Origin: an uncultured virus (IMG/VR IMGVR_UViG_3300043571_000263)
Lineage: Duplodnaviria; Heunggongvirae; Uroviricota; Caudoviricetes
Reading direction: 5' to 3' (one strand)
IMG/VR virus record: IMGVR_UViG_3300043571_000263
Length of the DNA: 64,000 bases
Position numbers and translations under genes: made by a program. The notes below the pieces were generated by a model, which saw nothing but the letters and a program-made list of their open reading frames with translations, ran no database searches and had not been told where the DNA came from. Position 1 is the first letter of the stretch; each line of letters starts with the position of its first letter. Shown here one piece after another: positions 3,470-41,608 of this stretch.

Positions 3470-3493
3470 ACGAATCGCCTTGATCTTGGTCTA
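3466..3493 (+). promoter_or_regulatory. Class M promoter TTGAACG-N15-GGTCTA
   Basis: Consensus match upstream of 3506. Confidence 0.7.
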
Positions 3494-3505
3494 AACACAC
3501 ACGCC

Positions 3506-4099
3506 ATGAACCAAGAACAGAAAAACAAATTTGCCTGCTTTCTTGGCAGCTCGATACTAAAGTATCACAAAAAAATCAAAATATCCTTCCATCCGGTAGA
3601 AAAATTGTTACAGGGAAGGGTTGAGTCAACTGGCTGGGCCGACGACAAAGAGCTACGCATTGCCACGAACGGCGAACCAAGCATTTGGCTTGGGGTTTTT
3701 GTCCATGAAACCTGCCACGTTGATCAAGGAGAGGAAAGACCTGAGTGGACAAGGCAATGCGAAATCGGCGTGGGAGCAATTGATGAATGGTTGGCTGGCA
3801 AAAAATACAGCAAGAAAAAAGTAGAAGAATTCATCAAGGACATTATCGAGCTTGAGTGGGACTGCGAGTGGAGGGCTTTGCGGAAAATAAAAAGCAACAG
3901 GCTGCCGATCAACATCAAGGAATACGCGCAAATGGCCAATGCCTACATTCTTGGATACCATTGGACTCTAAAAACCCGCAAGTGGTGCAAAAAAAGCTAC
4001 AGCGACGAAAATATCTGGAAAGCCATGCCAAACAGGCTTATATCTTTGACGGACGCGCTTTACCCGCCGAACCACCTAATAGAACTTTACAATGAATAA
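3506..4099 (+). CDS. Zincin-like metallopeptidase
   Basis: FVHETCHVDQ (HExxH) and ELEWDCE. Confidence 0.6.
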   Translation: MNQEQKNKFACFLGSSILKYHKKIKISFHPVEKLLQGRVESTGWADDKELRIATNGEPSIWLGVFVHETCHVDQGEERPEWTRQCEIGVGAIDEWLAGKKYSKKKVEEFIKDIIELEWDCEWRALRKIKSNRLPINIKEYAQMANAYILGYHWTLKTRKWCKKSYSDENIWKAMPNRLISLTDALYPPNHLIELYNE

Positions 4100-10220: not shown

Positions 10221-10230
10221 CAAAACACAC

Positions 10231-10515
10231 ATGAAAACAAAACAGCAAGAATTAGACATAATTGAAAACGCAATCTCACATCTATATGAATTAGAGGCCA
10301 TGATGCGAGCAGATTGCTTCCCTATAATTAGCTTGTCAGAATCGCAGGACATTTTCGAAAAGCAAATCAAAGAGGCGACAATGAAGGCAAAGCAAATTCT
10401 CGCCAATGCAAAACAATCTGCCGACGAATTGAGGCGGGAAAATGATGCCAAAATCACTCGATCAAAAGAATGGGCATACTCTGCATTGCAGAAAGCTATG
10501 GCAAATCTCCAATAA
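10231..10515 (+). CDS. Early coiled-coil hypothetical protein
   Basis: AAAACACAC-ATG start. Confidence 0.6.
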   Translation: MKTKQQELDIIENAISHLYELEAMMRADCFPIISLSESQDIFEKQIKEATMKAKQILANAKQSADELRRENDAKITRSKEWAYSALQKAMANLQ

Positions 10516-10736: not shown

Positions 10737-10756
10737 CACACCAAAATACACACACC

Positions 10757-11134
10757 ATGAAAAAAACACTGACAACATACGATATTGCGAACGAATTACA
10801 CAGCGACAAAAGTGCCGGATGGTCATGGGCTGGAGCCTTGGCATTGGCCGAATATCTTGAAGAATTAGACCGAGAGATCGAGCAGGAAATGGAATTTGAT
10901 GCGGTTGCCATACGCTGTGACTTTTCAGAATATAAAAACTTGCAAGAATGGGCAAAAGATTACTTTTGTGGAGAGGACAATGCAAAGAGGGAATTGTGCG
11001 ATGAATATATGCCCGACGAAAACGAATTATCAGATAATGATGAGGAAATTCCCGACGACAAAATCAAAGAATATATAAACGATAACGGCATCTTGATTGA
11101 GTTCGACGGCGGTATCATCGTCTCATCATTCTAA
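10757..11134 (+). CDS. Acidic early protein (possible antirestriction/DNA mimic)
   Basis: AL.EYLEE...EFD.VAIRCDFSEY; very D/E rich. Confidence 0.65.
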   Translation: MKKTLTTYDIANELHSDKSAGWSWAGALALAEYLEELDREIEQEMEFDAVAIRCDFSEYKNLQEWAKDYFCGEDNAKRELCDEYMPDENELSDNDEEIPDDKIKEYINDNGILIEFDGGIIVSSF

Positions 11135-11284: not shown

Positions 11285-11493
11285 AATACTATTATTACAT
11301 CAACCTAAACGAACGTGGAGAATTCTTTGCGGACGTTCGTGATGCAAATGATAAGACGATATTCGAAATCCAAGGATTCAGCATCTTCGAAGATGGACAC
11401 ATGCAACACGCAAAAGATATTGAAGGATTGCGAGATCACCTTATCGAATTAAACATCATTGATCCTGACGATCACATTGAAACCGGAGACTAA
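11281..11493 (+). CDS. Early acidic hypothetical protein
   Basis: YYINL.ERGEF.ADVR...IFEDG.M.H..D..GL. Confidence 0.65.
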   Translation: MKYYYYINLNERGEFFADVRDANDKTIFEIQGFSIFEDGHMQHAKDIEGLRDHLIELNIIDPDDHIETGD

Positions 11494-11501
11494 CACACAC
11501 C

Positions 11502-11648
11502 ATGAACAAACAACACACAGAATGGCCTTGGAGCCTTGAAGCAGTGAAAGACTATCTGCGGCACGGGGACACCGGAACCGATGCGAAAAGCCGTCACGCC
11601 CACATTGTCCGTGCCGCTATCGCCAAAGCCGAAGGGAGGAACCCATGA
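11502..11648 (+). CDS. Short HTPGPW/ARAAIAKA-family protein (48 aa, internally deleted)
   Basis: Manual read MNKQHTEWPWSLEAVKDYL...VRAAIAKAEGRNP. Confidence 0.55.
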   Translation: MNKQHTEWPWSLEAVKDYLRHGDTGTDAKSRHAHIVRAAIAKAEGRNP

Positions 11649-13321: not shown

Positions 13322-13342
13322 AAAATCTAACAACACGAACAC

Positions 13343-13552
13343 ATGAAAGCAACAATCAAAAAATACACCCCACCATCAAACGGATACATCCTGAGGCTTG
13401 GATTTGACGAAATCACGACAATCAAGATGGCACTTGAATCCAAACTTAAAAACAATTTCAGAAACAGGCGTTCCCAATTTGGGAAGCGAGAGATCAAGTT
13501 CACCACAAAAGCAATGAGAGCTGTCGCTCAGGGGGAAATCTATGTGGATTGA
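13343..13552 (+). CDS. Hypothetical protein
   Basis: AACAC-ATG start. Confidence 0.55.
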   Translation: MKATIKKYTPPSNGYILRLGFDEITTIKMALESKLKNNFRNRRSQFGKREIKFTTKAMRAVAQGEIYVD

Positions 13553-27632: not shown

Positions 27633-28631
27633 TTATCGACTTTTGTTGAATATATCACTCAACAGGGGTCTTTGTCCAGTCGTTCCTTTAGGGGATTTTT
27701 GCTCGCCATTTTCCGATTGAGCCTTTGTGTCTTTCTCGGAAAGAACAGAATTGACGCCTTCGAGATCAAGCACAAGCGCGCTTCGTTGTGATTTGAGAAT
27801 ATTAAGTTCTGTTTGAAATTTCTTTTGGTTTGGGCTTCCCTCTTTCTCCTCCTTCGCCCTTGTTTCTCGATCAAGGATTTCTGAGTCAATTTCTCGAACC
27901 TTTCCGCGAATTTCCTTTGCCTCTTGTCGCAGGGTTGAAGAATCGACGCTGGGCTTCCTTGCTGCTTCAGCTTCCATTTGTCCGAGTTTTATGGGATCAA
28001 TAACCAGCTCTCCTGTTTCCTTGTCGGAATACGCAAAATCGTTAATACTTTTTCCGGTTAGCGCAGCCAACTTGGATGTATCACGAAGCAGTTGATTATT
28101 TCTCTCTGATTGTTGTTCTCGCTTTCTTTGCCTTTCTTCATCTGCACTTCTGTAAACCTGAGATGCCGAATTGTATTGAGCGATGGTCTTTTGCACGCCC
28201 TCATCGGTTGTGCCAAGAGCGTTGTTTGCCATGATTTCGGCAATGCTGGATTCAAAGTCTGGCGATCTTGGATCAAGCTTATTGATTGCAGACATGATGT
28301 TCGCGGCTTCAAGTTGCGTCTGCGCTTGCAGTTTTTGATTGGCAACAGCCTCCTCCTGCTTGCGCTGAAAGTCTGCCTCTCGAAGCATTTGTTCGCGCAT
28401 CTGAAGACCGTACGATCTTTCGCTTTCGTATGCCTCTCTTTGAATCTCGTAGTTTGCGATCTCGCGTTTTCTGCGCTCGTCCCATTCTCTTTGCATACGA
28501 ATAGACCTGCGAGACGTTCCCGTGGGTCTTCCGCCCCAAGATTCTGGAAGGTCTTCTGGTGTTATGCCAGTTTGCGCCATGCCCCTAAATTGGGGAATTG
28601 CCGCATTGTCGCTAAAAAGAGGTTCGGCCAT
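27633..28631 (-). CDS. Internal virion protein (coiled coil)
   Basis: Position upstream of giant protein, helical composition. Confidence 0.6.
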   Translation of the reverse strand: MAEPLFSDNAAIPQFRGMAQTGITPEDLPESWGGRPTGTSRRSIRMQREWDERRKREIANYEIQREAYESERSYGLQMREQMLREADFQRKQEEAVANQKLQAQTQLEAANIMSAINKLDPRSPDFESSIAEIMANNALGTTDEGVQKTIAQYNSASQVYRSADEERQRKREQQSERNNQLLRDTSKLAALTGKSINDFAYSDKETGELVIDPIKLGQMEAEAARKPSVDSSTLRQEAKEIRGKVREIDSEILDRETRAKEEKEGSPNQKKFQTELNILKSQRSALVLDLEGVNSVLSEKDTKAQSENGEQKSPKGTTGQRPLLSDIFNKSR

Positions 28632-28632
28632 A

Positions 28633-29505
28633 TTATGCTGGTTGGGTTCTTAGTCCAAATGGTAGCGGGTTAAATGTCGGATTCCTTCTTTGGGGAGACG
28701 TTGCCATCCTTAATCCCCTGAATGGGTCTGCCATGCTTTGAGACGTGGCGGCAAACGGAGTGAATGAAAACGGAGTTCCGCTGGTCGTCCCCATTGAGAT
28801 GGTTGATTGCTGCGGTTGCCCTTGTGGCAAAAGTGGTTGAGGGAATTGCCCCATTGAAGATTGCATCCCTTGCGTGGTGTATGACGGCCTCTGAATTGGA
28901 GAGAACTGCCCCATTGAACCCATCCTGAATTGACCGCCAAAGGCAGAAATCGGAGACGTGTCCATTGCTTCTCGTTGTCCAGATGCGGCCTGTTTCCATC
29001 TTTCGGCCCCGACCAAAGCCTTTGCAGCTCTTTCTCTTCTGTCTTTACCCAAGACGCCACCTTCATAAGCGGACGGGGTAAGGGCTTCTTGTGCGCGGCG
29101 TTCCTCAATGCCCTGTCTAAAGGTGTAGTAATTTTGTATGCCTTGTCCCGCAAGACTTCCGGCAATTTCTGAACCGCGCTCGCGCATTTGAGCCAACAAC
29201 GCCTGCTGTTCTGCTGGTGATCTTGAACTTCTTTGATCTACGGTTCTGGGAGCGTTCATGTTTGCAGTCTGTTCTGGTGTCGCGTAAATGGTTCCACCAG
29301 CAACGCTTATGGGCAACATTCCAGATTTCGCCGCTTCGGAGAAGCTGGGCGTTGAGCTTGTGGCCGCTTGTCTGCTAACAGTTTGATTAAAGTTTACAGG
29401 AAAATCACGAATATAAGAATCCCCAAAAGCCGGAGCCGCGCTTGTTGAAGCGGGATTCAAGCTCGTTGGAAATTGCGGGATTTTATTTTTGTCTTCTTCT
29501 GGCAT
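28633..29505 (-). CDS. Low-complexity putative internal virion protein
   Basis: Q/S/G/P-rich, synteny. Confidence 0.55.
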   Translation of the reverse strand: MPEEDKNKIPQFPTSLNPASTSAAPAFGDSYIRDFPVNFNQTVSRQAATSSTPSFSEAAKSGMLPISVAGGTIYATPEQTANMNAPRTVDQRSSRSPAEQQALLAQMRERGSEIAGSLAGQGIQNYYTFRQGIEERRAQEALTPSAYEGGVLGKDRRERAAKALVGAERWKQAASGQREAMDTSPISAFGGQFRMGSMGQFSPIQRPSYTTQGMQSSMGQFPQPLLPQGQPQQSTISMGTTSGTPFSFTPFAATSQSMADPFRGLRMATSPQRRNPTFNPLPFGLRTQPA

Positions 29506-29509
29506 ATAT

Positions 29510-30481
29510 CTACCTCATGTTAATCATTCTGCGGGTTAACCAAGTTGCTGGCTGCATGGTTCCCTCTTGTCCAGAATTATACTCTTTCAGCTCTGCGTTG
29601 AGAAGCAGTAATGCCCTGTCCATGTAATATTGTCCCCGCTCTACGTCCGCCTTCTCTTCTGCGTTGAGTGCCATCAGGCCAAGCTTTAACGCCTCAAGGC
29701 TGTCTGGGAAGAGTTGATCGTTGTCGGAAGTTGCCCACACATGACGGCGTTTGAATACCCCCTGAACGCTGTCCCAGTTTTTATCAACCATGTAGCGGCG
29801 ATAGTTGATTACCCGCTCCCCCTGCTCATACTTTGCGATGTTCGTTGCCCCGACAGCCAGCGAAACAATGCCATCGGTGGGGGTTTTCTCCACGCTGTAA
29901 ATCGTGGCAAACGTCTGGCTTGTGGTTTGTGTGCCGCCAGAAAGATCAATTCTTATTCCTTCCACAATGTTGCCATCTACGGTTGAGAAAATTTTGTCTC
30001 CGTTGCTATCCGTTCCGCGAATCCAAACATAGCTTCCTACACACTCCGTTTGTGTGCTAGAAATTGTCAGTGGAGACGGCGTTGTGATGTCTCTGAAACT
30101 GACAAACCCTTCGCCCATGTCCTGTATCGGCCCATGGTAGGCTTGATCTGTTCTGCGTATTCCTCTTCCGTTTGGCAGGTATTGATACCACTCGCTCTGA
30201 ACGGAGCTTGTTTTGTATCCAGCCTTGCCAGCCCTCAAGCAGGTTTCAAGATGTCTGGGGAGCGTAATGAATTTGTTTTCGTTGGCGTCTTCGTATGCGG
30301 CAACTGTCGCCTGAACGACCAAGCCCTCCCATTTTCCTTCTGAATGGAATCGCTCAAGAACCCTGTTGATGTTGTTGCGTAGCTCTCCCTGTGCGTCAAA
30401 GCCCGCCAAATCAGGTGGGTCTGGTTGCGGCACAACGGAAGCTGGCAATCTTTCTATGGCAAGACCAAGTGTAAGTGACAT
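29510..30481 (-). CDS. Putative head-tail adaptor / tail tubular protein
   Basis: LRNNINRVLER...ITLPRHLE...ALKLGLMA...YYMDRA adaptor-like layout; sigma70-like promoter TTGACC-17-TATTTT upstream. Confidence 0.55.
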   Translation of the reverse strand: MSLTLGLAIERLPASVVPQPDPPDLAGFDAQGELRNNINRVLERFHSEGKWEGLVVQATVAAYEDANENKFITLPRHLETCLRAGKAGYKTSSVQSEWYQYLPNGRGIRRTDQAYHGPIQDMGEGFVSFRDITTPSPLTISSTQTECVGSYVWIRGTDSNGDKIFSTVDGNIVEGIRIDLSGGTQTTSQTFATIYSVEKTPTDGIVSLAVGATNIAKYEQGERVINYRRYMVDKNWDSVQGVFKRRHVWATSDNDQLFPDSLEALKLGLMALNAEEKADVERGQYYMDRALLLLNAELKEYNSGQEGTMQPATWLTRRMINMR

Positions 30482-30529
30482 TTGTTCTAAGAAAATACCA
30501 TCAATTTCAAAACAGGTCAATAACAGATT

Positions 30530-30605
30530 TGGCGTGGCTGGCAGGACTTGAACCTACGACTCTCGCTTTAGAAGAGCGATACTCTATCCACTGAGTTACA
30601 GCCAC
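30530..30605 (-). tRNA. tRNA-Arg (UCU)
   Basis: GTGGCTG acceptor stem, anticodon arm TCGCT-CTTCTAA-AGCGA, TTCAAGT T-loop, encoded CCA. Confidence 0.93.
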
Positions 30606-30606
30606 A

Positions 30607-31386
30607 TTAAAAAAGAGGTTTTGCGCTCGCTCCATTACCAACCCAAGGCAAAAATTCTTTCAGGTCTTTCACTGGCCAATTTTTGTTTTTCTGCAACCTG
30701 CCCCAATCCTCGCAAGCGTTCTCATATCCGCCGCGATATATGCGCTGTTTTTGTGCCACCTGTTGCGGCGTCACCCAAGCCATATGGAGGATGCTTCCGA
30801 CAGTATCAGACGTTGCCTTACGATCCAGTAGGTTGCCCTTGTTTCCATTAAAGATCGGTGGTTCATGCCGTTCCATCCATAGCCCTACACTGTATCGCCA
30901 AGCCCGAATCCATTCGTTCTTTCGATTTCCATAGCCATCTGATGATGTGGAGATTACGTTAGGCCCAAGCATGTAGTCCATCTCAAACTGTGCGGTATTT
31001 GCTTCGGGATTTTTCTCAAACAAATAAAGCAGCTCGATCATCTGGTGGAACGTCCACAACTCATCGCTATCCATTTGAAGCAACACTCCGTCACTGTTAA
31101 ATGCCGTTAATGCGGCGTTGATCATCTCTGTCTTTCCGCCCCATTCCGGCTTTGAGTTAACGGTAATTCGTGGATGAGTCGCTAGGGCTTGAATGAACTG
31201 ATGGGTTCCATCATGGGAGACTTTTCCGATCTGGTTTCCCATCCACGCTGTATCCTTCTGCGGAAGAGATGCGCCCTCGACTATTGACCAATGCCAATCA
31301 ACATCCCTCAATCGGCACAGTTCGGCAAATTGCGATCCAATCCAAGGGGAGCCATCAAGAACAATAGTGAATATGTTGAGGGTCAT
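30607..31386 (-). CDS. Glycosyltransferase (GT-A fold)
   Basis: IFTIVLDG.PWI, S.DGT, LQMDSDELW. Confidence 0.75.
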   Translation of the reverse strand: MTLNIFTIVLDGSPWIGSQFAELCRLRDVDWHWSIVEGASLPQKDTAWMGNQIGKVSHDGTHQFIQALATHPRITVNSKPEWGGKTEMINAALTAFNSDGVLLQMDSDELWTFHQMIELLYLFEKNPEANTAQFEMDYMLGPNVISTSSDGYGNRKNEWIRAWRYSVGLWMERHEPPIFNGNKGNLLDRKATSDTVGSILHMAWVTPQQVAQKQRIYRGGYENACEDWGRLQKNKNWPVKDLKEFLPWVGNGASAKPLF

Positions 31387-31395
31387 TTGTTGCCG

Positions 31396-31620
31396 TTAGT
31401 CAACATTCAGGGGTTTCGCCCCACAACGACATTCAAGATACTCCCCAAAGCTTAATTCTGTTTCTTGCTCGTTGTAGATGTAATCAAACAAAAAGTATTC
31501 TGCCTCTTTGTTGATTCCCAATTTTTTGACAAGCTTGTTGAATCGTCGATCTTGAACTTTTGACAGCTCGTTGATGAATTTCTTGGCGTCGTAGATTCTA
31601 TCCTCTGGATGTTTCTTCAT
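31396..31620 (-). CDS. Hypothetical protein
   Basis: ORF track. Confidence 0.55.
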   Translation of the reverse strand: MKKHPEDRIYDAKKFINELSKVQDRRFNKLVKKLGINKEAEYFLFDYIYNEQETELSFGEYLECRCGAKPLNVD

Positions 31621-31850
31621 TGCCTGTAGCGAGATGTTTTTTTAGCGATTTTGCTTGGTTGTTTTACGAACTGTTTTCCCGATTTGTTGCCCTTGGCTTT
31701 TGCCCTATTTGTTGCGGCCTTTTCTGCGGGGCTTAGTGCGCTCCAAGCGGCATCAGGAAGATAGCGTTTTTTTCCTTTAGACGGAGAACCGTCAGATGTT
31801 CGCCATTTCTGTTCCGTCCACTTCTTTAGGGATTGCTGTGATTTTTTCAT
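31617..31850 (-). CDS. Small basic protein (DUF5872-like C part)
   Basis: QQSLKKWTEQKWRT...RYLP.AAW..LS..EKAATNRAK. Confidence 0.75.
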   Translation of the reverse strand: MKKSQQSLKKWTEQKWRTSDGSPSKGKKRYLPDAAWSALSPAEKAATNRAKAKGNKSGKQFVKQPSKIAKKTSRYRQ

Positions 31851-31851
31851 G

Positions 31852-32037
31852 TTAATCGCGGTATCCTCCACCCTTGGCTTTGTATTCCTTGGCAAGAAGC
31901 TGTGCCTTGCGAGCCGACCATTCACCCTTGTCGCCGCCCTTGGTTCCAGCCTTGATCTTCTGGTAAAGGCGTTTACGCATTGCTGGCTTGGTATAATTTC
32001 CAGCGGCGTTGACTGTGCTTTTTGATTTCTTTTTCAT
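31852..32037 (-). CDS. Small basic protein (DUF5872-like N part)
   Basis: YTKP.MRKRL...IKAG.KGG..GEWSARKAQLLA.EYK..GGGY. Confidence 0.75.
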   Translation of the reverse strand: MKKKSKSTVNAAGNYTKPAMRKRLYQKIKAGTKGGDKGEWSARKAQLLAKEYKAKGGGYRD

Positions 32038-32041
32038 TGTA

Positions 32042-32299
32042 TTAGCACTCCCATTTTTTGCGCGACCAGTAATTGGCCGAAAGCTTGTTGCTTGTTCCCT
32101 TGATGCCACCAGACCTAGCGCAGTAGCTTTTTTTGCGGGCTGGCTGATCTTTCTTGATGGACATATTGGGGTCGCCAAAGCGAACCAATTTCACTTCGTC
32201 GCCCTGCTTGGCAAGGACGGCAAATTTCTTCGGGCCGCTTGGCGTGCGTTTTGGCTTGTTATAGCCACTGAACTTTTCACCTCTGTATTCTATGCTCAT
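32042..32299 (-). CDS. Small basic phage protein
   Basis: GYNKPKRTP...KKFAVLAK.GD.VKLVRFGD...RKKSYCARS...SANYWS. Confidence 0.75.
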   Translation of the reverse strand: MSIEYRGEKFSGYNKPKRTPSGPKKFAVLAKQGDEVKLVRFGDPNMSIKKDQPARKKSYCARSGGIKGTSNKLSANYWSRKKWEC

Positions 32300-32304
32300 G
32301 TTGT

Positions 32305-33177
32305 TTATTCCTTTGTTAGTGTTTTTCCAAAGTTACACCATTGCCTAACTCGGCAATAATTCAAGCATCTTGTTGGCTCCCCGCGTCTTTCTTCGACCAC
32401 TCCGCCAATCTTGGATGCGTGGGCTTTTGCTGATTCGATATCGTTATAGATTCCTCCCGATACAGCCCTCTTGGCTGTCTTGTCTTTGAGCACGGCAAAC
32501 ACGTCCTCCTTTTGCCAGCGTTCGCGCTCTGAACAATGGGGAATTTCGTCGTCGTGGCTGGACGCTCTTGCAGCCTCATGCGCTGCTATTCTGCTCTTGA
32601 TATAGGCCATCGTCTCCTCTGGCTTCCAGATGGGAAGCTCAATGGGTTGAATGGCGCATTGCGGATACTCTGGTTTTATCTTCGCCTCGCGCAACTTCCA
32701 GTCCTTCATTATGATGATGTTGCAAAGCTTCTTGGGAAATACTCCATTGGCCTCGCACAGCAGCTTGTTGATATTTCCCTGAGCCGTCCATTCAAACTTG
32801 TCGTCTGACAAAGCCTTCCACACACCAGACTCCTTCCAGTCGTAAAGTGTTTCTGTCTCGTTATCGTAAAGGTCAATCTGGCCCCCGACCTTGATTCCAT
32901 CTACGTCGAGATACATGCGCTTCTCCACGATGTAGCGGCTTGGGTTGCGCTTGGCAATTTGCTCCAAGACGTAGTGCTTGGCTGTTCCGCTCATTGTCCA
33001 CACGCGATCAGATGCGTCTTCTACAATGTCCGCTTGGTGCCGAGCAAACAGAACGCTAACCTTCGGCGGGCCGATTAGCTGTGTGGTGCTGTATTGTGCC
33101 TCGCCCTTGTTGTAGGAGTCTTCGCTGACAAGATCAACGAAGGGTTGTGGTAGATTGTGGACATTCGTTATTAACAT
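32305..33177 (-). CDS. PD-(D/E)XK exonuclease (Cas4/RecB-like)
   Basis: GTAKH, VEKR, GQIDLYD, DWK, Q.N, C-terminal RC..YC.V..WC. Confidence 0.8.
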   Translation of the reverse strand: MLITNVHNLPQPFVDLVSEDSYNKGEAQYSTTQLIGPPKVSVLFARHQADIVEDASDRVWTMSGTAKHYVLEQIAKRNPSRYIVEKRMYLDVDGIKVGGQIDLYDNETETLYDWKESGVWKALSDDKFEWTAQGNINKLLCEANGVFPKKLCNIIIMKDWKLREAKIKPEYPQCAIQPIELPIWKPEETMAYIKSRIAAHEAARASSHDDEIPHCSERERWQKEDVFAVLKDKTAKRAVSGGIYNDIESAKAHASKIGGVVEERRGEPTRCLNYCRVRQWCNFGKTLTKE

Positions 33178-33184
33178 GTGCAAT

Positions 33185-33212
33185 TTGACAGTAGTGTGGT
33201 TGATTCGTTCAA
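33185..33212 (-). promoter_or_regulatory. Class M promoter TTGAACG-N15-TGTCAA
   Basis: Consensus match; ATG 7 nt downstream. Confidence 0.72.
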
Positions 33213-33293
33213 AAAAATGTGCAGTCTCTCCTGCTGTCACGCCATTGTAGCCCACGGTTGCGACCCGTAATGCTGGCTGACGTTGCCAAAGGA

Positions 33294-33455
33294 TTATTTA
33301 CTTTTTTTCTTTTTGCTCATTCCAGCAGAACTCAAGGCAATTGCTTGGGCCTGCTTGCGCGATGTTACTTTTTGTCCAGAGAAACTTTTGAGCTTTCCAG
33401 ATTTGTATTCACGCATCACTTTTTCTACTTTTTTCTGTCCGTTTTTCTTTTTCAT
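33294..33455 (-). CDS. Small basic protein (DUF6496-like, 53 aa)
   Basis: Manual read MKKKNGQKKVEKVMREYKSGKLKSFSGQKVTSRKQAQAIALSSAG. Confidence 0.75.
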   Translation of the reverse strand: MKKKNGQKKVEKVMREYKSGKLKSFSGQKVTSRKQAQAIALSSAGMSKKKKSK

Positions 33456-33676
33456 GTTGATTTAACTCCTAGTAGCTTTTTGATGTATTTTATGTGCCAG
33501 CACTCATGGCCTTTGTCCCGAACGTGGCGGAACATGTAGCTGTCACAACAGCAAGTCCAAGGGGATTCTGTGGTGTCAACGATGTATCCTTCGTGGATGT
33601 TGCGGCGAGACGGCACATAAAAGCTTCCGTTGTTATACTTGAAAACCTTCCAATTAGAAGATTTCTTCTTCGTCAT
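33452..33676 (-). CDS. SWIM-type zinc-finger protein
   Basis: WTC.C..Y.FR......C.HI. Confidence 0.65.
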   Translation of the reverse strand: MTKKKSSNWKVFKYNNGSFYVPSRRNIHEGYIVDTTESPWTCCCDSYMFRHVRDKGHECWHIKYIKKLLGVKST

Positions 33677-34337
33677 TTACTGGCTGTGCCTCCGCTAAGT
33701 TTTGGGCTTTGCTTGCGCCAAATCCAAGCTCTTCTGGTGTGTAGGGGTTAATCGGCATCGAGTCAATAAATCCCTTGCGGTCAGCTTGAATGAATAACGT
33801 TGTCGCAATTCCCTGACGGTGTTCATCAGGAAGACCAAGCTCGATCTTGATATCGTTGGCCTTCTTGACACAGAGCCGCATAAGGTTGGCTGCTTGACAG
33901 AGAAACGTCTTTGTTTCGCGGTCTGATTTTTGTTGGGGCGGCTTTTGCTCTGGAGCCACAACACGAAATGCTGCGGGCTGCGAAACAGCAGGGGCTGTTG
34001 CCACAGGTTGGACTGGTTGTGCTGGCTGTGCGATTTGCGTAGCGGGGACTCCTGCGAGCTGGAACTCCATACGCGCAGTCCCTTGCTTGCTGTTTCCAGA
34101 TGCCATGAGGACGACTTGTTGCCCAACATGTGATTCAAAACCAGATTTGATCTCCGGTGTGTCAACCCAATAGACATGTTTGACTCCATCAACAAGAAGC
34201 TCCACCAAGCAGAGCGTGTTGTTTTTTACCATCTTCGGCGCGTTCATCACGGTAACGAGCTTGGGGCCGTCTTTGACGAGTGCGCTGTGGTAGAGAGTCG
34301 GGTCTTTGGGTTTGTTGTTTGTGTTTTGATATGCCAT
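33654..34337 (-). CDS. Putative ssDNA-binding/recombination protein
   Basis: Beta-rich N-term, AQP linker, IATTLFIQA helix, acidic-aromatic C-tail DEEEIF; next to exonuclease. Confidence 0.5.
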   Translation of the reverse strand: MAYQNTNNKPKDPTLYHSALVKDGPKLVTVMNAPKMVKNNTLCLVELLVDGVKHVYWVDTPEIKSGFESHVGQQVVLMASGNSKQGTARMEFQLAGVPATQIAQPAQPVQPVATAPAVSQPAAFRVVAPEQKPPQQKSDRETKTFLCQAANLMRLCVKKANDIKIELGLPDEHRQGIATTLFIQADRKGFIDSMPINPYTPEELGFGASKAQNLAEAQPVNDEEEIF

Positions 34338-34360
34338 AAGGATTATAGGTTAGGCAGATA

Positions 34361-34388
34361 CAGACACGGCGCAAGACAATTCGTTCAA
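34361..34388 (-). promoter_or_regulatory. Class M promoter TTGAACG-N15-TGTCTG
   Basis: Consensus match upstream of 34337. Confidence 0.65.
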
Positions 34389-34396
34389 TGTTTTGT

Positions 34397-34432
34397 AAAA
34401 AAAAGCGACCCCGCCGATTAAGCGGGGCCGCT
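34397..34432 (-). terminator. Intrinsic terminator
   Basis: AGCGGCCCCGC...GCGGGGTCGCT followed by T8. Confidence 0.85.
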
Positions 34433-34484
34433 CCAACACACACACACACATGTTTAGTTACTTCAACCTTACATTAAAAACCCA
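34397..34484 (-). ncRNA. Candidate GU-repeat small RNA (~88 nt)
   Basis: TTGCAA-17-AAGAAT (extended TG) promoter at 34491-34519, CAT(GT)n core, GC hairpin + T8 terminator. Confidence 0.6.
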
Positions 34485-34571
34485 AAAACCATTCTTGCAC
34501 GATTTCTCGATTATTGCAACAGGAAAATGCTCTTGATTGTGAACATTTTTTAAGCTATGGTATTTGATTAA

Positions 34572-36314
34572 ATGGCCACAGAATATCCCCCTTTAGGAAA
34601 GTCTTACGTTTCAGGATACGCAAACAATGAGCGCGACTATCCAATTGTGTCAATCAGGAAAGACCCAAGGGTTGAAAACTACAAAATTCCCGACGACCTT
34701 TCCCCGCATCCCGACTCCTCAAGGTGGCCAAACCATGTGTTTACAGGAGCACAGCCAACGCGCAGCGATGAGAGGGTAGAGTGGGTTTATGAGATTCTGC
34801 CGGGGCCGTGGGTTCCATTCACCCGCTATGACGACAATCTTGGCCCAGTTCAGGGCAGACGCCGCTCCGTAATCAACACGGGGCAACGCGCCTCTTTGGC
34901 AACCAATCAAAAGAGAACCTACGAGGGGCGTGAAGGCTCGGCGATTGTCTCTCTGGAGATTGAGGAGAATTGGAGCGACGGCTCTGGCTCTGAAGAAAAC
35001 CCAGCATTCCCGATCAACACAAGCGACATCTACGACGAAAGACTTGGCCCTGTTGAGTTGCAACGTCAGATTGTGGTGGCCACAGGAGATGAGGTTGGTT
35101 CCATCACTCAAGACGGCGCGGTTGTAACCGAAATCGAGTTTGAACCCTACAACGAGTTTCTGCTTGTCAAAACAACCAAAAGATACAGCCTGCCAAGCGT
35201 TGATTTAACTGGTCAGGCCACAGGCCAATGGGGCGTTGAGTCCACCAGTAGAAGGTCTGTTGACAATGGCTCATCTGCCGATTTTGGGTTTGGGATTAAG
35301 GGTTCTCAGGTTCAGCCGCAAGGAGACGGCAGCTCCCTAAAACAAACCGAACTGTATCCGCCTGACTCCAATAATGATGGGGTCATTTATACACTAAGGG
35401 GGCAGGAGGAGGACGAGACAACCAAGGCCGTGGTCAGTGTTGAGAAGTCTTTGGTTGAGGCTGAAACCGTGGAGTCTGGAAGGGTGGCAAATTACATTGC
35501 TGGCCTTAGAAGCAACAATTACACTGTTGAGGTTCAGCCGTTGGACAAGTGGCACAGCATTACTGTTGCTTCCAAAATAACGTCTCCCCCGCAGAATGAG
35601 ACTTGGACAGAGACGGGTGGAATATCCCTGCCCAATCGCCTTCTGGAGGTCGGTGTAATCTGGGATAAAAAGATAGACTCAAATGCCGGAACCGCTGGAG
35701 TTGATAATATCGCAGGGGTTGAGTCTGAGGATATTTCTTGGAATGTAAAGGCGGAGGCGGCGATTACTGGAAGCTTTTCGGGCCGTCCGTTCACCAAGGT
35801 TGAGGCTGGATATAATGGCCCAGCAGAAATGACTGTTGTAAGGACGTTCACTTTCGGCGAGCCAACAACCCCCATCTCTGTGAGAAACTTCAAGCCTGTG
35901 TTCGGATACATTACAATATTCGGGATAGCGCAGCAAAGAAACGGAACTTCTTATGTTGCTGGTCAGGGCGATATTAGGGCCGCGTCTGGTGCTTATACCA
36001 GATTTGATGGAGACACGGACATGGTTGTTCACGACTTTGGCCCAGTTGAACACAATAACCCAACGTTGCAGGCATTGGGAGACGGCATTGGTGCTTTGAC
36101 TGGCAATATCTCCGCAAGCGGCGGCAGCGTTCCGGGAGGCGGCTCCTATCCCACAATCAATCTTTCGTTAAACTTACAGGCATCGGCAAGCTTGGAGCTT
36201 CCGCCAAGTTCCGTTCCCCTCCTTTCTGGACAGACATTCATTAAGCAGGTGGTCACAAGACCTTGGAGGCTTGGATGGTGGGTGCGCGAGGTTTATACTG
36301 CAAAAGTTCCATGA
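34572..36314 (+). CDS. Putative tail/virion structural protein
   Basis: 580 aa beta-rich, G/S/T/V-rich; no catalytic motifs. Confidence 0.5.
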   Translation: MATEYPPLGKSYVSGYANNERDYPIVSIRKDPRVENYKIPDDLSPHPDSSRWPNHVFTGAQPTRSDERVEWVYEILPGPWVPFTRYDDNLGPVQGRRRSVINTGQRASLATNQKRTYEGREGSAIVSLEIEENWSDGSGSEENPAFPINTSDIYDERLGPVELQRQIVVATGDEVGSITQDGAVVTEIEFEPYNEFLLVKTTKRYSLPSVDLTGQATGQWGVESTSRRSVDNGSSADFGFGIKGSQVQPQGDGSSLKQTELYPPDSNNDGVIYTLRGQEEDETTKAVVSVEKSLVEAETVESGRVANYIAGLRSNNYTVEVQPLDKWHSITVASKITSPPQNETWTETGGISLPNRLLEVGVIWDKKIDSNAGTAGVDNIAGVESEDISWNVKAEAAITGSFSGRPFTKVEAGYNGPAEMTVVRTFTFGEPTTPISVRNFKPVFGYITIFGIAQQRNGTSYVAGQGDIRAASGAYTRFDGDTDMVVHDFGPVEHNNPTLQALGDGIGALTGNISASGGSVPGGGSYPTINLSLNLQASASLELPPSSVPLLSGQTFIKQVVTRPWRLGWWVREVYTAKVP

Positions 36315-37000
36315 ACGAAATAGACCCCCAAAAACTGGAAATTCTAAGACAGGCACTTCCGCGTGGATTGGCGGCTGGTGATGGCGGATTTGTTGATTCT
36401 CGCGGCACTCCAGACGTTATGCCGCAATTTGCGCCGTTTCGCTCCAACACAATACAAAACAAGCTAAGAGTTCCATCGCCTGAGTTTTCCGATCCCCCGC
36501 AAGTTGGAGGAGCTGGGCCGAAGATTCCGCTCCATCCGTTTCAGGTTGTTCAGATAAACAATGATGGAAACTACAGCTATTTTGTAAACCTTGAGAGCAA
36601 TCTGTTTTCTTCGTTGTCCCCGACATCGAAGGTTGCAATCACAGGATTGAATAGTCCGTTTACGCTTACCTCTGGAGGCTACATCTGGCTTGGAATTACA
36701 TTTAATAGAAGCGGCGGAGTAACTGGCGCGTTTATCGACAATAGCGACACCGATACCTTTAACCTGTCTGCCGCACCTTGGAGCGATAACAATGCTTATG
36801 TTGAAGATGACGGCGAACCCGAACCAGAAGGCGCAAGACACCAATCGTCCCGCAAGCTCATAGCTTACATCATTGCTGGGGCAAATGGAGAGCCTGTGGT
36901 TAAACAGGTTATGCGTAACGACCAAGTATTAAGAAGCGTCTGCATCAATGGCAAGCCGGCCCAATATCCATTCGCCCACGAAGGGGGGTATCCATTTTGA
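36311..37000 (+). CDS. Putative tail-associated protein
   Basis: HPFQV motif, beta-rich, coupled to upstream gene. Confidence 0.5.
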   Translation: MNEIDPQKLEILRQALPRGLAAGDGGFVDSRGTPDVMPQFAPFRSNTIQNKLRVPSPEFSDPPQVGGAGPKIPLHPFQVVQINNDGNYSYFVNLESNLFSSLSPTSKVAITGLNSPFTLTSGGYIWLGITFNRSGGVTGAFIDNSDTDTFNLSAAPWSDNNAYVEDDGEPEPEGARHQSSRKLIAYIIAGANGEPVVKQVMRNDQVLRSVCINGKPAQYPFAHEGGYPF

Positions 37001-38070
37001 GCGGAGTAAATTACTGCGACGGTTATTTGCCGTTCTGCATACCAACTGAAGTTGGTGGAAAGGATATTGAGTTGTGGGACGGAAGCACGACATTTGAGGA
37101 TGTTATTTATCGAGAGGGAGAAAATCCAGACGATCCATTTGGAGAGCAGGTAATAACACTGGCCTCCAACTCATCAAGCGAATACATTCCTGTTGTTGGA
37201 AACGGGTGCGGGTGGGTTGAAATTGATATAAACACAGCATGTGAGCTTTATTGGCGAGCGCGTGCGTTAACTTTTACAGAAGAAAGTATTACTGGCACAA
37301 TCACGTCCCAGTCCTTCTATCAAACGCCAGTCTTGGCAGAGGTAACGGCTACAAGAATAAATGGTGTTTTGGATGAGAACATTCAGAACGAGGGGTCTTT
37401 GGTTTGTTCAAAAAAGTCTCCTTGGGAGTCGCTGTTCCCGCTACTTTCTGGTGGATGGCCAAGATTTGATTTTGAAGCAACAATGCAATCAATAGACAGC
37501 GGAGAGCCTGACTACGAGTTTATTGGAAATTTCCCAGTTGATCCGTTTGTTAATGGAAGCGTTGTTATCGAGCCTCAATTTGTTGATGAGTTTGGCTTTC
37601 AGGTTCTTGGCTATACAACCGATGGAACTGGTTTAAATTTTAGACAAATAAAAGAACAGCCAGACAGGGTTTACGTTGCTTTAGTATCACTTTTTGGCCC
37701 TCCGATTTTTCAATATATTACTAGATACAACTTTTTAAACGGCGACCCCGTTAATGCCGGTATATCAATTGTGAGCGGAGATGCTGTTGGAATTTTCCGA
37801 ACTACAGATTTTACCGGATTTAGTAGCCTGTTTGAACTTACGGATCAATCTACAACCATAACAATACTCGGAAAAAGCAACTCCGTGAGAGTAATAAAAT
37901 ACACGGATGCCGTTTACTCTCCAGACGGATTTTACACAATAAACGAAATCAAAGATTTGTTGAGACAGCATTACCCAACAATATTCTCATACCCCAATCT
38001 TGGAATAAAGGCTCTAGAATACTTCACCTATGGAGGTATTTACGATAAAGACACCGGAGAACAAGTATAA
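36997..38070 (+). CDS. Putative tail/receptor-binding protein
   Basis: YWR motif near N-term, C-terminal YFTYGGIYD.DTG; AT-richer variable middle. Confidence 0.5.
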   Translation: MSGVNYCDGYLPFCIPTEVGGKDIELWDGSTTFEDVIYREGENPDDPFGEQVITLASNSSSEYIPVVGNGCGWVEIDINTACELYWRARALTFTEESITGTITSQSFYQTPVLAEVTATRINGVLDENIQNEGSLVCSKKSPWESLFPLLSGGWPRFDFEATMQSIDSGEPDYEFIGNFPVDPFVNGSVVIEPQFVDEFGFQVLGYTTDGTGLNFRQIKEQPDRVYVALVSLFGPPIFQYITRYNFLNGDPVNAGISIVSGDAVGIFRTTDFTGFSSLFELTDQSTTITILGKSNSVRVIKYTDAVYSPDGFYTINEIKDLLRQHYPTIFSYPNLGIKALEYFTYGGIYDKDTGEQV

Positions 38071-38838
38071 CTACTTACTGTCTTTGTAGTTTTCGTAAGC
38101 GCGATTGCTGATAGTGTAAAACGTTTTGCAGCATTTGCACATCATTTGTCTCTTTACCGTGCCAGCGGCAGTGGTTCGGGTTTTGGACAAATACACGTCT
38201 GTTTCTCCGCAATTGGGACAATCGTATTTTTCTCCGCCATTAGCAACCGCGTAATTGTATTGATGGTTGGCGTAAGTTCGGAGTTCTTGGTAAACGCGCT
38301 CAAGCAAAACAACATCACGCTTGCAATAGTCCACCATTTTCCGAAGGCTCTTTCTGTCCTTGTTGAGGACAATTGATTTCCACAAATCAAAACCTCCCGT
38401 GTCCATCTTTCCGCCGAAGCCCAAAAACTTGGCAATATAATCAAGCTTGTTGCTGTTGAACAAGAATTGGTTGCGGGCAATCTTCAAGGTGTCTAAGGTA
38501 ACATACTTTGGATACATGGGAACGCGATGGTAGAGGCATCGAGTCTTGAGCCATTTCATGTCGAAACGGTCTCCATTGTGTCCTACGATTTCTTCGGCGG
38601 AATTTGCGATTTCCGAAAACTCCTTAACCATCTTTTTGTCGCAATGGTTTTCATCCCACGTCAAAGAATGGACATGGCGTTCCCCCTCCCACTTGTAGCA
38701 GATGCAGATGATGGCTCTTTCCTCCAAAATGTTGTCATGGGGGATTCGCAGCTCGTATCCGGTTCTCCAAGAGAACACAACGTTTGGAGATGTTTCGATG
38801 TCAAAGAATAAACGGCGACGTTTGATTTTGTTGCTCAT
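38071..38838 (-). CDS. DnaQ/RNase H-like 3'-5' exonuclease with Zn ribbon
   Basis: FFDIETSP, VGHNGDRFD, DTLK, NKLDYIA, YCKRDV, CPNCG. Confidence 0.85.
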   Translation of the reverse strand: MSNKIKRRRLFFDIETSPNVVFSWRTGYELRIPHDNILEERAIICICYKWEGERHVHSLTWDENHCDKKMVKEFSEIANSAEEIVGHNGDRFDMKWLKTRCLYHRVPMYPKYVTLDTLKIARNQFLFNSNKLDYIAKFLGFGGKMDTGGFDLWKSIVLNKDRKSLRKMVDYCKRDVVLLERVYQELRTYANHQYNYAVANGGEKYDCPNCGETDVYLSKTRTTAAGTVKRQMMCKCCKTFYTISNRAYENYKDSK

Positions 38839-38842
38839 ATTG

Positions 38843-39454
38843 TTATTCTAAACCGCGAATCATGGCCAGCGTCCTGACGTATCCAATGCTGTCCAGCAAG
38901 TTGTCGTATGTTGTTTTGTTTTGATCTCTGGCAATCTTTAGCAATACCATCATCCAAGCAATGTCTTCAACTGTAATGTTTCCACCCTCTTTGCGGTTTC
39001 CAAGGTAGATGTTCCACAGGTCTGCGATTCTCTTGAAGTTCTCCGTTGGGTGGCCGTAGTCCTTTTGTCGGTCGCCCGATGTAATGCGCTTGGCTTGGTC
39101 AAGAATGGACTCTTTTCCGTGTTCCACCATTGATGGGTAGAGATACACCTTCTTGCACAGCCATTGGGCTACAGCAAGCTCTGCCTTGGCTCCTTTACTT
39201 TTCTCCCAATCTGGCAGCATGGCGATGGCATCTGCGTTAATAAGTCCAATAAGATCGCGCTTGGCAGCTCCAAGCAAGAACTCCTCGTCCATAACGAAAT
39301 CTGGATGAGTTGGGTCGTATCCCGCCTCAGAATCCAATCTTGCGGGATTTATTACTTCGTATCCCTGTTCTTTGAGTTTTTCTTCCGCCGCGAAGAATGC
39401 AGGGAAATTGTAATGGGTGTAACCCGTCATCGGGCCAGCCAGATATATTTTCAT
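38843..39454 (-). CDS. DUF4406 (deoxyribosyltransferase-like) fused to DUF6378-like domain
   Basis: IYLAGPMTG..NFPAF...NPA...WEKSKGA.AE; GDRQKDYGHP.ENF.RIA.LW...LKIAR...D.IGY. Confidence 0.8.
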   Translation of the reverse strand: MKIYLAGPMTGYTHYNFPAFFAAEEKLKEQGYEVINPARLDSEAGYDPTHPDFVMDEEFLLGAAKRDLIGLINADAIAMLPDWEKSKGAKAELAVAQWLCKKVYLYPSMVEHGKESILDQAKRITSGDRQKDYGHPTENFKRIADLWNIYLGNRKEGGNITVEDIAWMMVLLKIARDQNKTTYDNLLDSIGYVRTLAMIRGLE

Positions 39455-39474
39455 GTGTTGTGTTGGTTGTGTGT

Positions 39475-39750
39475 TTATTCGATGTTTTTCTTCAAAACAT
39501 TTTTTAATCCGCCGTCATCATCATTGTCGTCGTCGTCATCAATTTCGTCAATGTCGTCTTGGGAATACATGATGTCGTGGATATTCGATATAAGACCATC
39601 AATTGTGTAGTCATTGCCAAATTTAATAAAAGCATTTTTGGTTTCGCTGGCTTCCTTGTAGGTAACAACAACGTAGCCTGCATCGACATATTCGACAAGC
39701 TCATGGCAGAGTTTGTTCAAAATTTCTACAAGTTTTTCGTCTCGCCCCAT
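39475..39750 (-). CDS. Hypothetical protein with acidic tail
   Basis: GGAGG RBS; poly-Asp. Confidence 0.6.
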   Translation of the reverse strand: MGRDEKLVEILNKLCHELVEYVDAGYVVVTYKEASETKNAFIKFGNDYTIDGLISNIHDIMYSQDDIDEIDDDDDNDDDGGLKNVLKKNIE

Positions 39751-39876
39751 TAAAATTCCTCCCTGCAATTTTTACAGATTCTCAATACACCCACATGTTT
39801 GACGTAAACCGTGTCAACGTTTTTGTCTCCGCAATACGGACATTGATTTTGCTTGGGCTTTTGCTTTTTCTTTTTG

Positions 39877-40473
39877 TTATTTTGTTGCATACAACTCTTT
39901 GAGAATTCTTGAAATTACACGACCGTATTCCATTGGGGCAATATCCGTTTTTCGGCTTGGGGAAACCATGCGGTGATCCAAAACCATGTTGGGTTGAATA
40001 TTCCAATTCCTCATTCTTGGCAAGATGTATTCCATAGCAGAAGCAATGGCGTCCTCGCCAAGCGGCTCAAGATATGTGTCGCCCTCCCAGCTAACACCTA
40101 TTGACCAGCTATTGAGGTCTGGGCGGCCCTTCCAGAGGCTTTTGCCGGCGTGCCATGTTCTCATTCGGTCGTCGGCAAAAACGGTTCTGCGGCCATCTCT
40201 GGCGATTAAGCAGTGGTAACTTACCTTAGACGCTGGATTCATTATCCAGTCCACGCCTCCAGCGTAAGAGCCACCCGAATGGTGGAGAACGATTGCTTCG
40301 GGCTTGATTAGGGAGCCGCTTTTATTGGGCGTGTTTTTTCTCGCCTCTGGATATTTTTTGACGCTCACGCTTGGAGTGGATGGTATTGGCGATACGGATA
40401 CAGAGTTCGGCGAGTGTGGTGACTGGCCACTTTTTGATCTCTTTCCAAACAGCTTCAAGATCGCGTTCCACAT
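39877..40473 (-). CDS. Endolysin, N-acetylmuramoyl-L-alanine amidase
   Basis: IVLHHS, VSYHCLI, TWHAG.S.W, N.WSIGVSWE, DHR.VSP.RKTD. Confidence 0.9.
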   Translation of the reverse strand: MWNAILKLFGKRSKSGQSPHSPNSVSVSPIPSTPSVSVKKYPEARKNTPNKSGSLIKPEAIVLHHSGGSYAGGVDWIMNPASKVSYHCLIARDGRRTVFADDRMRTWHAGKSLWKGRPDLNSWSIGVSWEGDTYLEPLGEDAIASAMEYILPRMRNWNIQPNMVLDHRMVSPSRKTDIAPMEYGRVISRILKELYATK

Positions 40474-40519
40474 TGCTCATTTTTTCCAAGGGCAACTGCG
40501 AGTGCCAATGTCCCAACGC

Positions 40520-40699
40520 CTAAAAATCCGCTCCACCTCTGATTCCGAAGTGTTTGGTAATCTTCCCTCCCTGTATCCGCCCTTTAACTGAGAACTTGAT
40601 TGAGGCGAGGAGGCGGACAAGGAAGGGGCGGCTATCTTCTTTTTCTGGGGGGTGGATGAATATTTCACGAAGATGCTCCTTTTTTATTTGTTTGCTCAC
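40520..40699 (-). CDS. Small basic lysis-cassette protein
   Basis: GTG start overlapping upstream stop; amphipathic FLVRLLASI, ends GIRGGADF. Confidence 0.5.
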   Translation of the reverse strand: MSKQIKKEHLREIFIHPPEKEDSRPFLVRLLASIKFSVKGRIQGGKITKHFGIRGGADF

Positions 40700-41315: not shown

Positions 41316-41331
41316 AGGTTTTCAATCTATC

Positions 41332-41604: not shown

Positions 41605-41608
41605 TGTC

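Follow-up and report, generated by a model that had tools for sequence, protein, structure and literature searches.

A Conserved Candidate Small RNA Gene with an Exposed UG Repeat in a Family of Uncultured Freshwater Phages

We analyzed a 64,000-nt stretch of DNA from an uncultured virus of the Caudoviricetes (IMG/VR record IMGVR_UViG_3300043571_000263), referred to below as the window. A short minus-strand unit in it, composed of a promoter, a predicted transcript with an exposed G/U-rich stretch (hereafter the seed) and an intrinsic terminator (Table 1), is very probably a real, conserved and previously uncatalogued phage small RNA (sRNA) gene that represents a new family. It is the conservation of the unit in related phages that places it beyond chance. 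That the sRNA acts in trans, with its exposed AUG(UG)n stretch pairing with C/A-rich start regions, and that phage start regions are the targets in the lineage of the window, we consider an evenly balanced proposition. Judging by its gene content, the window is phage DNA: it encodes a primase, a DnaB-type helicase, a large terminase subunit, an exonuclease, a holin, an amidase, a tRNA-Arg, and an open reading frame (ORF) of 2835 aa.

Anatomy of the Unit

The unit is housed in a gap of 234 nt that is flanked by divergent genes, namely a 227-aa ORF on the minus strand (33654-34337) and a 580-aa ORF on the plus strand (34572-36314). On the minus strand of the gap, TTGCAA, a 17-nt spacer and AAGAAT are followed by a predicted transcript of ~88 nt with CAUG(UG)7UUGG, a 14-pair hairpin, and T8. 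The original prediction, made from the letters of the window alone, had described the same succession of promoter, ~88 nt with no credible ORF, seed, hairpin, and T8, and it could be read directly from the sequence. A same-strand ORF that opens at the CAUG reads on through the terminator.

The terminator, with nine G-C pairs among its 14, ranked first among the 27 terminator-like sites found when positions 26000-45000 were scanned. The fold energy of the predicted sRNA was -30.5 kcal/mol (z = -3.5), and none of 200 shuffles was as good. The centroid structure of the window RNA left the seed unpaired.

Conservation across the Phage Family

Relatives were collected via the neighboring 227-aa protein. 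A profile built from 17 of its 378 homologues yielded 64 viral-contig loci, 53 of which had distinct upstream regions. A covariance model was trained on 19 RNAs of the commonest form (18 base pairs) and searched against the window and 52 loci that each stand for one distinct upstream region; the 12 duplicate loci were omitted. The model matched 52 of these 53 sources at E <= 1, including 32 matches at E <= 4.4e-17. The window was matched at 34398-34486 (28.6 bits, E = 0.0015), and the sole source among the 53 without a match was L065, in which the T-run is weak. The promoter-(GT)n-terminator unit that the original prediction had proposed to seek in relatives is thus present in 52 of 53 sources. 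Across the relatives, the identity of the flanking 227-aa protein was 46-89%, and the sRNA occurred exactly once in each of five near-complete genomes.

The promoter in relatives reads TTGCA(A/T)-16-TGnTAGATT. Two relatives with 86% protein identity had the same -35 element, an extended -10 element, and a T-run, with entirely different letters in the terminator stem and an RNA body that was shorter, G/U-rich, and ended in CAUGGUGUGUGUUGG. The commonest form, found in distant relatives (46-59% protein identity), consists of a TTGCAw-16-TGcTAGATT promoter, a 5' hairpin (GGAAGGC/GUCUUCC), the linker UGUUUUCAUGUGUGUGG, and then the terminator and U-run. The exact 28-nt core of this subtype was present in only nine metagenome contigs.

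Database matches were sparse. Neither the window nor four relatives matched any Rfam family at its gathering score, no DNA match to the window was found in the GenBank phage collection, and a terminase search for cultured relatives returned one weak match (26% identity). The record nearest to the window, G001, is without the sRNA region. Scanning a collection of bacterial and archaeal genomes with the flanking-protein profile yielded no host. Parts of the stretch were matched by 24 runs from 24 studies, and all phage-bearing runs were lake or freshwater metagenomes. DNA contigs from four of these runs were aligned with the stretch. Those of X3 and X4, which span 34250-34650, and the second contig of X5 (34292-34650) were identical, with the length of (GT)7 unchanged; one X6 contig begins at 34438, within the (GT)7 repeat. 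Phage genomes in the family measure ~65-73 kb.

Structural Constraint and Strand of the RNA

Base pairs were counted in the covariance-model alignment, which contained 40 distinct rows. Standard pairs occupied 96.1% of cells, compared to 75.9% in shuffles (none of 500 as high) and 50-61% when partners were slid. Changes on both sides were found in 16 of the 18 pairs (105 cells vs. 20 expected). The terminator helix, with 98.6% of its cells paired, showed compensatory changes in 10 of 11 pairs. RNAalifold applied to a plain MAFFT alignment of all subtypes recovered only four pairs; because the stems are unlike in sequence, MAFFT could not align them, and this failure is itself the signature of covariation. 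Invariant columns of the plain alignment were confined to the TGTGT core.

A UG run of at least 5 nt, mostly UUUUCAUGUGUGUG, was found at the linker in all 40 distinct RNAs, and the linker as a whole was 68-100% G+U. The CATG was present in 30 of the 40, the window counted, and the G-tracts beside the seed differed between subtypes. Three pairs are mostly G-U and would become A-C mismatches on the opposite strand; the structured RNA is therefore that of the T-run (minus) strand. The covarying helices, the G-U pairs, and the invariant UG run bear out the earlier reading of the unit as an independent non-coding element of the minus strand with the G/U repeat as its core.

These data also bear on the idea that translation of a small protein (28 aa in the window) begins at the plus-strand (CA)7-ATG, which we regard as extremely improbable. 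A 28-aa ORF does exist there (34450-34536), as the original prediction had pointed out when naming it as a possible refutation; the plus strand resembles other CA-leader starts, and L003 and L004 read AACACACACC-ATG-AAAAAA. A start is present by pattern in 30 of 40 distinct relatives, but the ORFs range from 3 to 33 aa (one extends beyond 74), and frame and stop vary even between near-identical RNAs, giving for example 10, 13, and 31 aa. Furthermore, no plus-strand promoter was evident upstream, and the G-U pairs and the T-run put the function on the opposite strand. The plus-strand ORF was rejected because its length, frame, and stop are not conserved.

Single-sequence folds of ~40 variants consistently showed the terminator, a separate 5' hairpin, and an unpaired linker, with no helix competing with the terminator, and no Rfam cis-regulatory family matched at the gathering score. 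A riboswitch or attenuator leader is disfavored by these folds and searches, and a leader of the 227-aa gene also by the separate promoter and the HNH insertion described below.

Some caveats attach to the unit being an expressed, structured sRNA. The alignment used for pair counting had been fitted to the structure of the model. The sRNA promoter is weak when taken alone, with eight of 12 consensus matches; it falls under the cut of 9/12 and is therefore unlisted in our promoter scan, which at that cut returned 14 promoter-like sites vs. 19.9 expected. Finally, there was no RNA run among the 24 runs matching the stretch, and expression of the sRNA is a prediction.

Independence from Neighboring Genes

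The layout of the relatives shows the sRNA unit to be independent of its neighboring genes, because a conserved TTGAAC-17-GTC promoter follows the terminator and because the unit tolerates an insertion in L040. The unit is placed further upstream in L040 and L064. A 194-aa HNH-type ORF in L040 has been inserted exactly between the sRNA terminator and the promoter of the 227-aa gene, and the unit there still scores 89.5 bits. As expected of trans-acting, terminator-ended sRNAs of bacteria or phages, the unit has its own conserved promoter (TTGCAw-16/17-TGnTAGATT) and its own covarying terminator, apart from the neighboring mRNA, and it has no conserved ORF on either strand.

The same observations help to weigh a cis-acting explanation, according to which the unit is a transcription checkpoint: a phage antiterminator would allow read-through of the terminator to feed the downstream operon, and the short RNA would be a by-product. 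The elements are in the order that such a checkpoint needs, namely promoter, short transcript, strong terminator, and then a long same-strand operon (34337 to 19113). In this respect the unit is like the lambda PR'-tR' 6S RNA and oop RNA, short constitutive phage transcripts that arise in regulatory intergenic regions and stop at a strong terminator right before an operon. However, a leader of the lambda PR'-tR' type would require the terminated promoter to be the only one of the downstream operon, whereas a separate conserved TTGAAC-17-GTC promoter lies here between terminator and gene, and the unit remains intact when an HNH gene is inserted between the two. The strongest sequence constraint falls on the single-stranded G/U stretch rather than on a promoter-proximal site, and no competing antiterminator fold was seen. 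A scan of 75 ORFs against Pfam found no antiterminator-like family, although most of these ORFs were matchless and the window is less than a whole genome. We consider the checkpoint distinctly unlikely.

The RNA might also work without pairing with mRNA. It could titrate a G/U-binding host protein as a decoy or sponge, or it could prime replication or form an R-loop at an origin in the divergent intergenic region. Near 34 kb, the cumulative GC skew reaches its minimum and the sign of the AT skew switches, and DNA-metabolism genes are located downstream (a gene for a single-stranded DNA-binding (SSB)-like protein and an exonuclease gene at 32305-33255). Phage skews, however, mostly track gene orientation, which also flips near 34 kb, and the G-tracts beside the seed are not conserved between subtypes, making an explanation of this kind very unlikely.

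Start Signals and Promoter Classes

The start regions of the window and its relatives were A/C-rich, G-poor, and mostly without a Shine-Dalgarno (SD) motif; SD-like motifs were detected in 16-25 of ~100 start regions per genome. Endings in ...ACC-AUG or ...ACACC-AUG, where position -3 is an A, were frequent, and so were genes that open with AUG-AAA-AC. Such A/C-rich, SD-poor starts point to a host with SD-independent initiation.

The promoter of the sRNA belongs to a sigma70-like class (TTGnnn-16/17-TAGAWT) that also precedes the 580-aa gene and the large ORFs of the terminase-gene region, which are presumably structural. A second promoter-like class, TTGAAC-N17-GTC[ATG][AG]N, has a spacer of 17 nt except for one site with 18 and was counted 10 times in the window, seven times in G002, and nine times in G006. 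We take it to resemble an extracytoplasmic function (ECF) sigma type motif (GAAC ... GTC). The ATG is often located only 6-11 nt past the -10 element of this class, so the corresponding mRNAs would be leaderless or nearly so. No phage sigma factor for these promoters was found in the ORF scan of the window; a 104-aa helix-turn-helix protein (1081-1395) gave a weak Sigma70_r4 match (E 0.005) that is below the cut-off. Genes with CA-rich leaders sit in the region served by the TTGAAC-N17-GTC class. As the promoter classes differ, the sRNA and these genes are probably under different programs; the "late-expressed" timing ascribed to the sRNA in the original prediction is a guess, and the silencing of early translation and the host targets that it proposed are conjectural.

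Proposed Mechanism and Predicted Targets

According to the mechanism that we propose, the sigma70-type promoter would drive a transcript of 60-90 nt. This RNA would have a 5' hairpin in most relatives, followed by a single-stranded G/U-rich stretch around AUG(UG)n (mostly UUUUCAUGUGUGUG) and a strong terminator that ends in U residues. Pairing in trans between the exposed stretch and C/A-rich, SD-less starts would cover the (CA)n leader and the AUG, in most relatives the following AAAAC as well, and would block ribosome access. The best predicted targets in the lineage of the window are small plus-strand genes at 3.5-13.4 kb and a gene at 39454. We infer the transcription of the sRNA, its action by base pairing, its mRNA partners, and its timing.

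All seven CA-rich leaders quoted in the original prediction were found at the positions given there. Outside the sRNA gene, the window contains four (AC)4 runs (3495, 10748, 11493, and 12528), all of which end 1-3 nt before an ATG; the ATG that adjoins the run at 12528 precedes the main ORF, which starts at 12564. The leader at 13343 is probably transcribed, since it sits 20 nt past a TTGAAC-17-GTCTAA promoter. The gene at 39454 carries the PHROG names nucleoside 2-deoxyribosyltransferase and MazG-like pyrophosphatase, and its orthologues in G003, G004, and G005 likewise have CA-rich leaders. This ~200-aa gene (38843-39454) topped the conservation ranking of 48 gene families, with p ~0.003 uncorrected and ~0.15 corrected (an estimate).

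At the start of the 94-aa gene (10231), ACACACAUGAAAACA (10222-10240) is a perfect 15-nt complement of the seed of the distant, commonest subtype, UGUUUUCAUGUGUGU. The seed of the window has lost the UUUUC part and has a lengthened UG repeat instead.

Pairing Enrichment across Genomes

Six genomes contained 99 CA runs of 6-7 nt or more (at least three CA repeats). For 21 of these, an ATG no more than 12 nt further on opens an ORF of at least 40 codons, compared to 8.6% at random positions (p = 9e-5). A first duplex scan of the whole window was too permissive (median -8.4 kcal/mol), and its top sites were used only after ranking. We then scored each genome's own seed against its start regions (-20 to +12), using intragenic windows and composition-matched shuffled seeds as controls and a 1% control threshold. 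The test was run twice, with a 26-nt window seed in the first run and a 23-nt one in the second.

Start regions of the window fell below the threshold in 6/90 (26-nt seed) and 4/90 cases (23-nt seed) vs. 0.9 expected, and shuffled seeds were never as good (0/60 and 0/40). The closest relatives behaved similarly, with 3/82 start regions below the threshold for G007 and 9/50 for G008 (shuffled seeds as good: 0/40 for each). G008 has a 2.5-kb cluster of small genes with ...ACACC-AUG leaders that match the seed of that lineage, CAUGGUGUGUGU, which is the seed of the nearest relatives of the window. The figures for the two runs were 4/99 and 3/99 in G002 (shuffled seeds as good: 1/60 and 1/40), 4/110 and 2/110 in G003 (2/60 and 1/40), and 3/101 and 1/101 in G004 (1/60 and 1/40). 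Taken together, the enrichment of predicted start-region pairing was strong in the lineage of the window, moderate in G002-G004, and absent in seven records. Within the commonest subtype (G002-G005), exact seed complements of at least 9 nt were mostly (C)ATGAAAAC(A) gene starts, 27/44 vs. 4/16 in a reversed control (7/10 in G002, 7/16 in G003, 9/10 in G004, and 4/8 in G005).

A number of results weigh against pairing with phage starts. The complete genome G005 had 1/101 and then 0/101 start regions below the threshold, with shuffled seeds as good in 7/60 and 15/40 cases, and the complete genome G006 had 0/93 (55/60 and 36/40). The fragments G009-G012 had one each of 57-84 vs. 0.6-0.8 expected, with 6 to 29 of 40 shuffled seeds as good; these fragments are 66-74% complete, and the relevant region may be missing from them. 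For G013, the sole match below the threshold was the complement of the sRNA gene itself. None of the orthologous targets in the 48 ranked gene families was significantly conserved, and the full 13-nt complement ACACACATGAAAA occurred in G002-G005 only at the sRNA locus itself. Part of the enrichment of ATGAAA-type starts among the seed matches follows from the CAT in the seed, since such starts abound in every genome. One of the best examples in the original prediction, the CA run before the ATG at 3506, is weakened by its position: it directly follows the -10 element of a TTGAAC-17-GTCTAA promoter, with the ATG just 11 nt away, and is thus probably mostly untranscribed. In addition, C/A-rich leaders may be plain translation enhancers that pair in silico with any G/U-rich RNA, and duplexfold disregards accessibility and permits many bulges. 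The proposal that the seed pairs with CA-rich leaders therefore stands in part, with enrichment in the window, G007, and G008, none in G005 and G006, and no significantly conserved orthologous target.

The same sRNA could instead have host mRNAs or a host sRNA as its conserved targets, and its pairing with phage leaders could be a side effect of shared C/A-rich signals. This would fit the retention of the seed in relatives whose own starts show no enrichment (G005 and G006), the lack of an emerging conserved phage target, and the restriction of the perfect 13-nt complement to the sRNA locus in four phage genomes. Several described phage-borne sRNAs act on host RNAs, according to a review (PMC12197685). 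Such targets would, however, leave the strong enrichment in the lineage of the window unexplained, and we hold this explanation to be unlikely.

Comparison with Known Small RNAs

The original prediction had drawn a parallel with GcvB (Rfam RF00022), an Hfq-dependent sRNA of enterobacteria. The phage sRNA resembles it in having a G/U-rich single-stranded seed (a linker of 68-100% G+U in the 40 RNAs, unpaired in the centroid), a predicted binding to C/A-rich sites at or just upstream of many start codons, and an intrinsic terminator. GcvB silences translation-enhancing ACA motifs, as described in PMC3879156. There is no homology in sequence or structure between the two RNAs: a match to the GcvB covariance model was absent in the window and four relatives, for which GcvB was missing even from permissive Rfam lists (E up to 10 and up to 1). 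In contrast to GcvB, the sRNA described here is phage-encoded and much shorter, and its seed, which directly precedes the terminator, joins a dinucleotide repeat to CAUG and would therefore also cover the start codon. The best mechanistic reading is that the phage sRNA may work like GcvB without being related to it.

DicF is a trans-acting sRNA borne by phages or prophages. AgvB and StxS, from E. coli prophages, target a host sRNA, a host mRNA or, for StxS, the phage-borne stx1AB transcript, according to the same review (PMC12197685). Trans-acting sRNAs of this kind are short, terminator-ended, phage-borne, and thought to base-pair, which they have in common with the present sRNA; the latter differs in coming from an uncultured freshwater phage family and in having SD-less starts of the phage itself as its best predicted targets.

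Genomic Context

Coordinates of the unit, its predicted targets, and the surrounding promoters and genes are collected in Table 1.

Table 1. Positions of the sRNA unit, neighboring elements, and predicted targets in the window.
Feature	Position	Strand	Details
sRNA promoter	34491..34519	-	-35 TTGCAA (34519-34514), 17-nt spacer, extended -10 TGcAAGAAT (34499-34491), with TG at 34499-34498 and AAGAAT at 34496-34491
Predicted sRNA, ~88 nt	34397..34484	-	putative 5' end 6-7 nt past the -10 element; 3' end in T8
Seed CAUG(UG)7UUGG	34433..34452	-	CATG 34452-34449, (TG)7 34450-34437, then TTGG; unpaired in centroid fold; UG run kept in relatives
Intrinsic terminator	34397..34434	-	hairpin 34434-34402 and T8 at 34404-34397
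Downstream-gene promoter TTGAAC-17-GTCTGT	34360..34388	-	ATG 22 nt beyond; kept after the terminator in relatives
Downstream 227-aa gene, outside the RNA	33654..34337	-	378 metagenome homologues
Divergent promoter TTGATT-17-TATGGT of the 580-aa gene (34572-36314)	34533..34561	+	back to back with the sRNA promoter
Predicted target, 125-aa gene	10737..10768	+	acacacacc-ATG-AAAAAAAC; predicted duplex -24.8 kcal/mol vs. 1% threshold of -18.6 or -20.9
Predicted target, 94-aa gene (start 10231)	10222..10240	+	ACACACAUGAAAACA; 9-nt exact complement to the window seed
Predicted target, 48-aa ORF	11492..11504	+	AACACACACC-AUG; 9-nt exact complement
Predicted target, 69-aa gene	13323..13354	+	leader aacaacacgaacac-AUG; -22.4 and -22.9 kcal/mol
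Doubtful target, 197-aa gene	3486..3517	+	AACACACACGCC-AUG; -24.0 and -25.7 kcal/mol
Predicted target, 203-aa gene	39443..39474	-	leader acacacaaccaacacaacac-AUG; -19.8 kcal/mol
TTGAAC-N17-GTC sites	1044, 3466, 5356, 13294	+	
TTGAAC-N17-GTC sites	63784, 39720, 34388, 33212, 1022, 309	-	

Both hexamers of the divergent promoter of the 580-aa gene are kept in L003 and L004, and more distant relatives have TTGCCG-17-TAAGTT or TTGCCG-17-TAGGTT. The -35 elements of the two divergent promoters are 12-13 bp apart. The conserved ATTTTCC block around which they stand could be a regulator or UP site that both promoters share.

The 227-aa protein is probably an OB-fold single-stranded DNA-binding protein, as suggested by its predicted structure. 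Its AlphaFold2 model (mean predicted local distance difference test score 68.9) has an N-terminal beta-barrel, a disordered linker, and a C-terminal helical hairpin, and Foldseek returned weak but consistent matches to OB-fold SSB proteins (PrgE, mitochondrial SSB, and SsbA; E 0.013-0.2). The protein had no Pfam match and no PHROG match, and none of the solved structures searched by sequence matched it or its 580-aa neighbor. Together with the exonuclease (32305-33255), the SSB-like protein looks like a recombination or replication module.

HNH-type ORFs flank the sRNA unit on either side in different relatives (L040, 1843-2427; upstream regions of L033, L036, L055/L057, and L064), with the unit intact. 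An HNH_3 plus AP2 ORF is also present in the window, at another place (45710-46426). These insertions look like homing-endonuclease traffic within the phage family.

The 2835-aa ORF of the window (19113-27620, minus strand) has a counterpart of 2975 aa in G006. Its only match, to the ADP-ribosyltransferase domain of polyvalent proteins, was weak and stayed below the cut-off (22.7 vs. 31.2 bits, E 1.8e-4). Other genes include a dCMP/cytidine deaminase gene (4273-4749, plus strand), a lysis cassette with an Amidase_2 endolysin and an LLH-type holin (39877-41315, minus strand), and tRNA-Arg(TCT) (30530-30605, minus strand).

Implications

To our knowledge, few sRNAs are known from non-temperate or uncultured phages. 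The present family was defined purely by comparative genomics, and the evidence for it is unusually clean, as each genome has a single copy, the helices covary, and the exposed seed is invariant. Whatever the sRNA does, the family and its covariance model can serve as a marker of this phage group.

Should the seed indeed pair with C/A-rich starts, sRNA control would be linked to SD-independent initiation through a compact pair of RNA and start motif. SD-independent initiation is poorly understood outside Bacteroidia (PMC6847099). A broader proposal, possible though doubtful, is that the sRNA acts throughout the family as an "anti-leader" riboregulator that switches off a whole class of starts, (CA)n leader-AUG-AAAAC, in genes of the phage early region and possibly in host mRNAs. 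Part of this proposal is that (CA)n-AUG-AAAAC would be an SD-independent start signal in the phages and probably in their host too. Were it true, the sRNA would act as a switch that times translation in abundant lake phages, and seed and leader would have co-evolved, CAUG-UGUG with ACACAUG and CAUGG-UGUG with ACACC-AUG.

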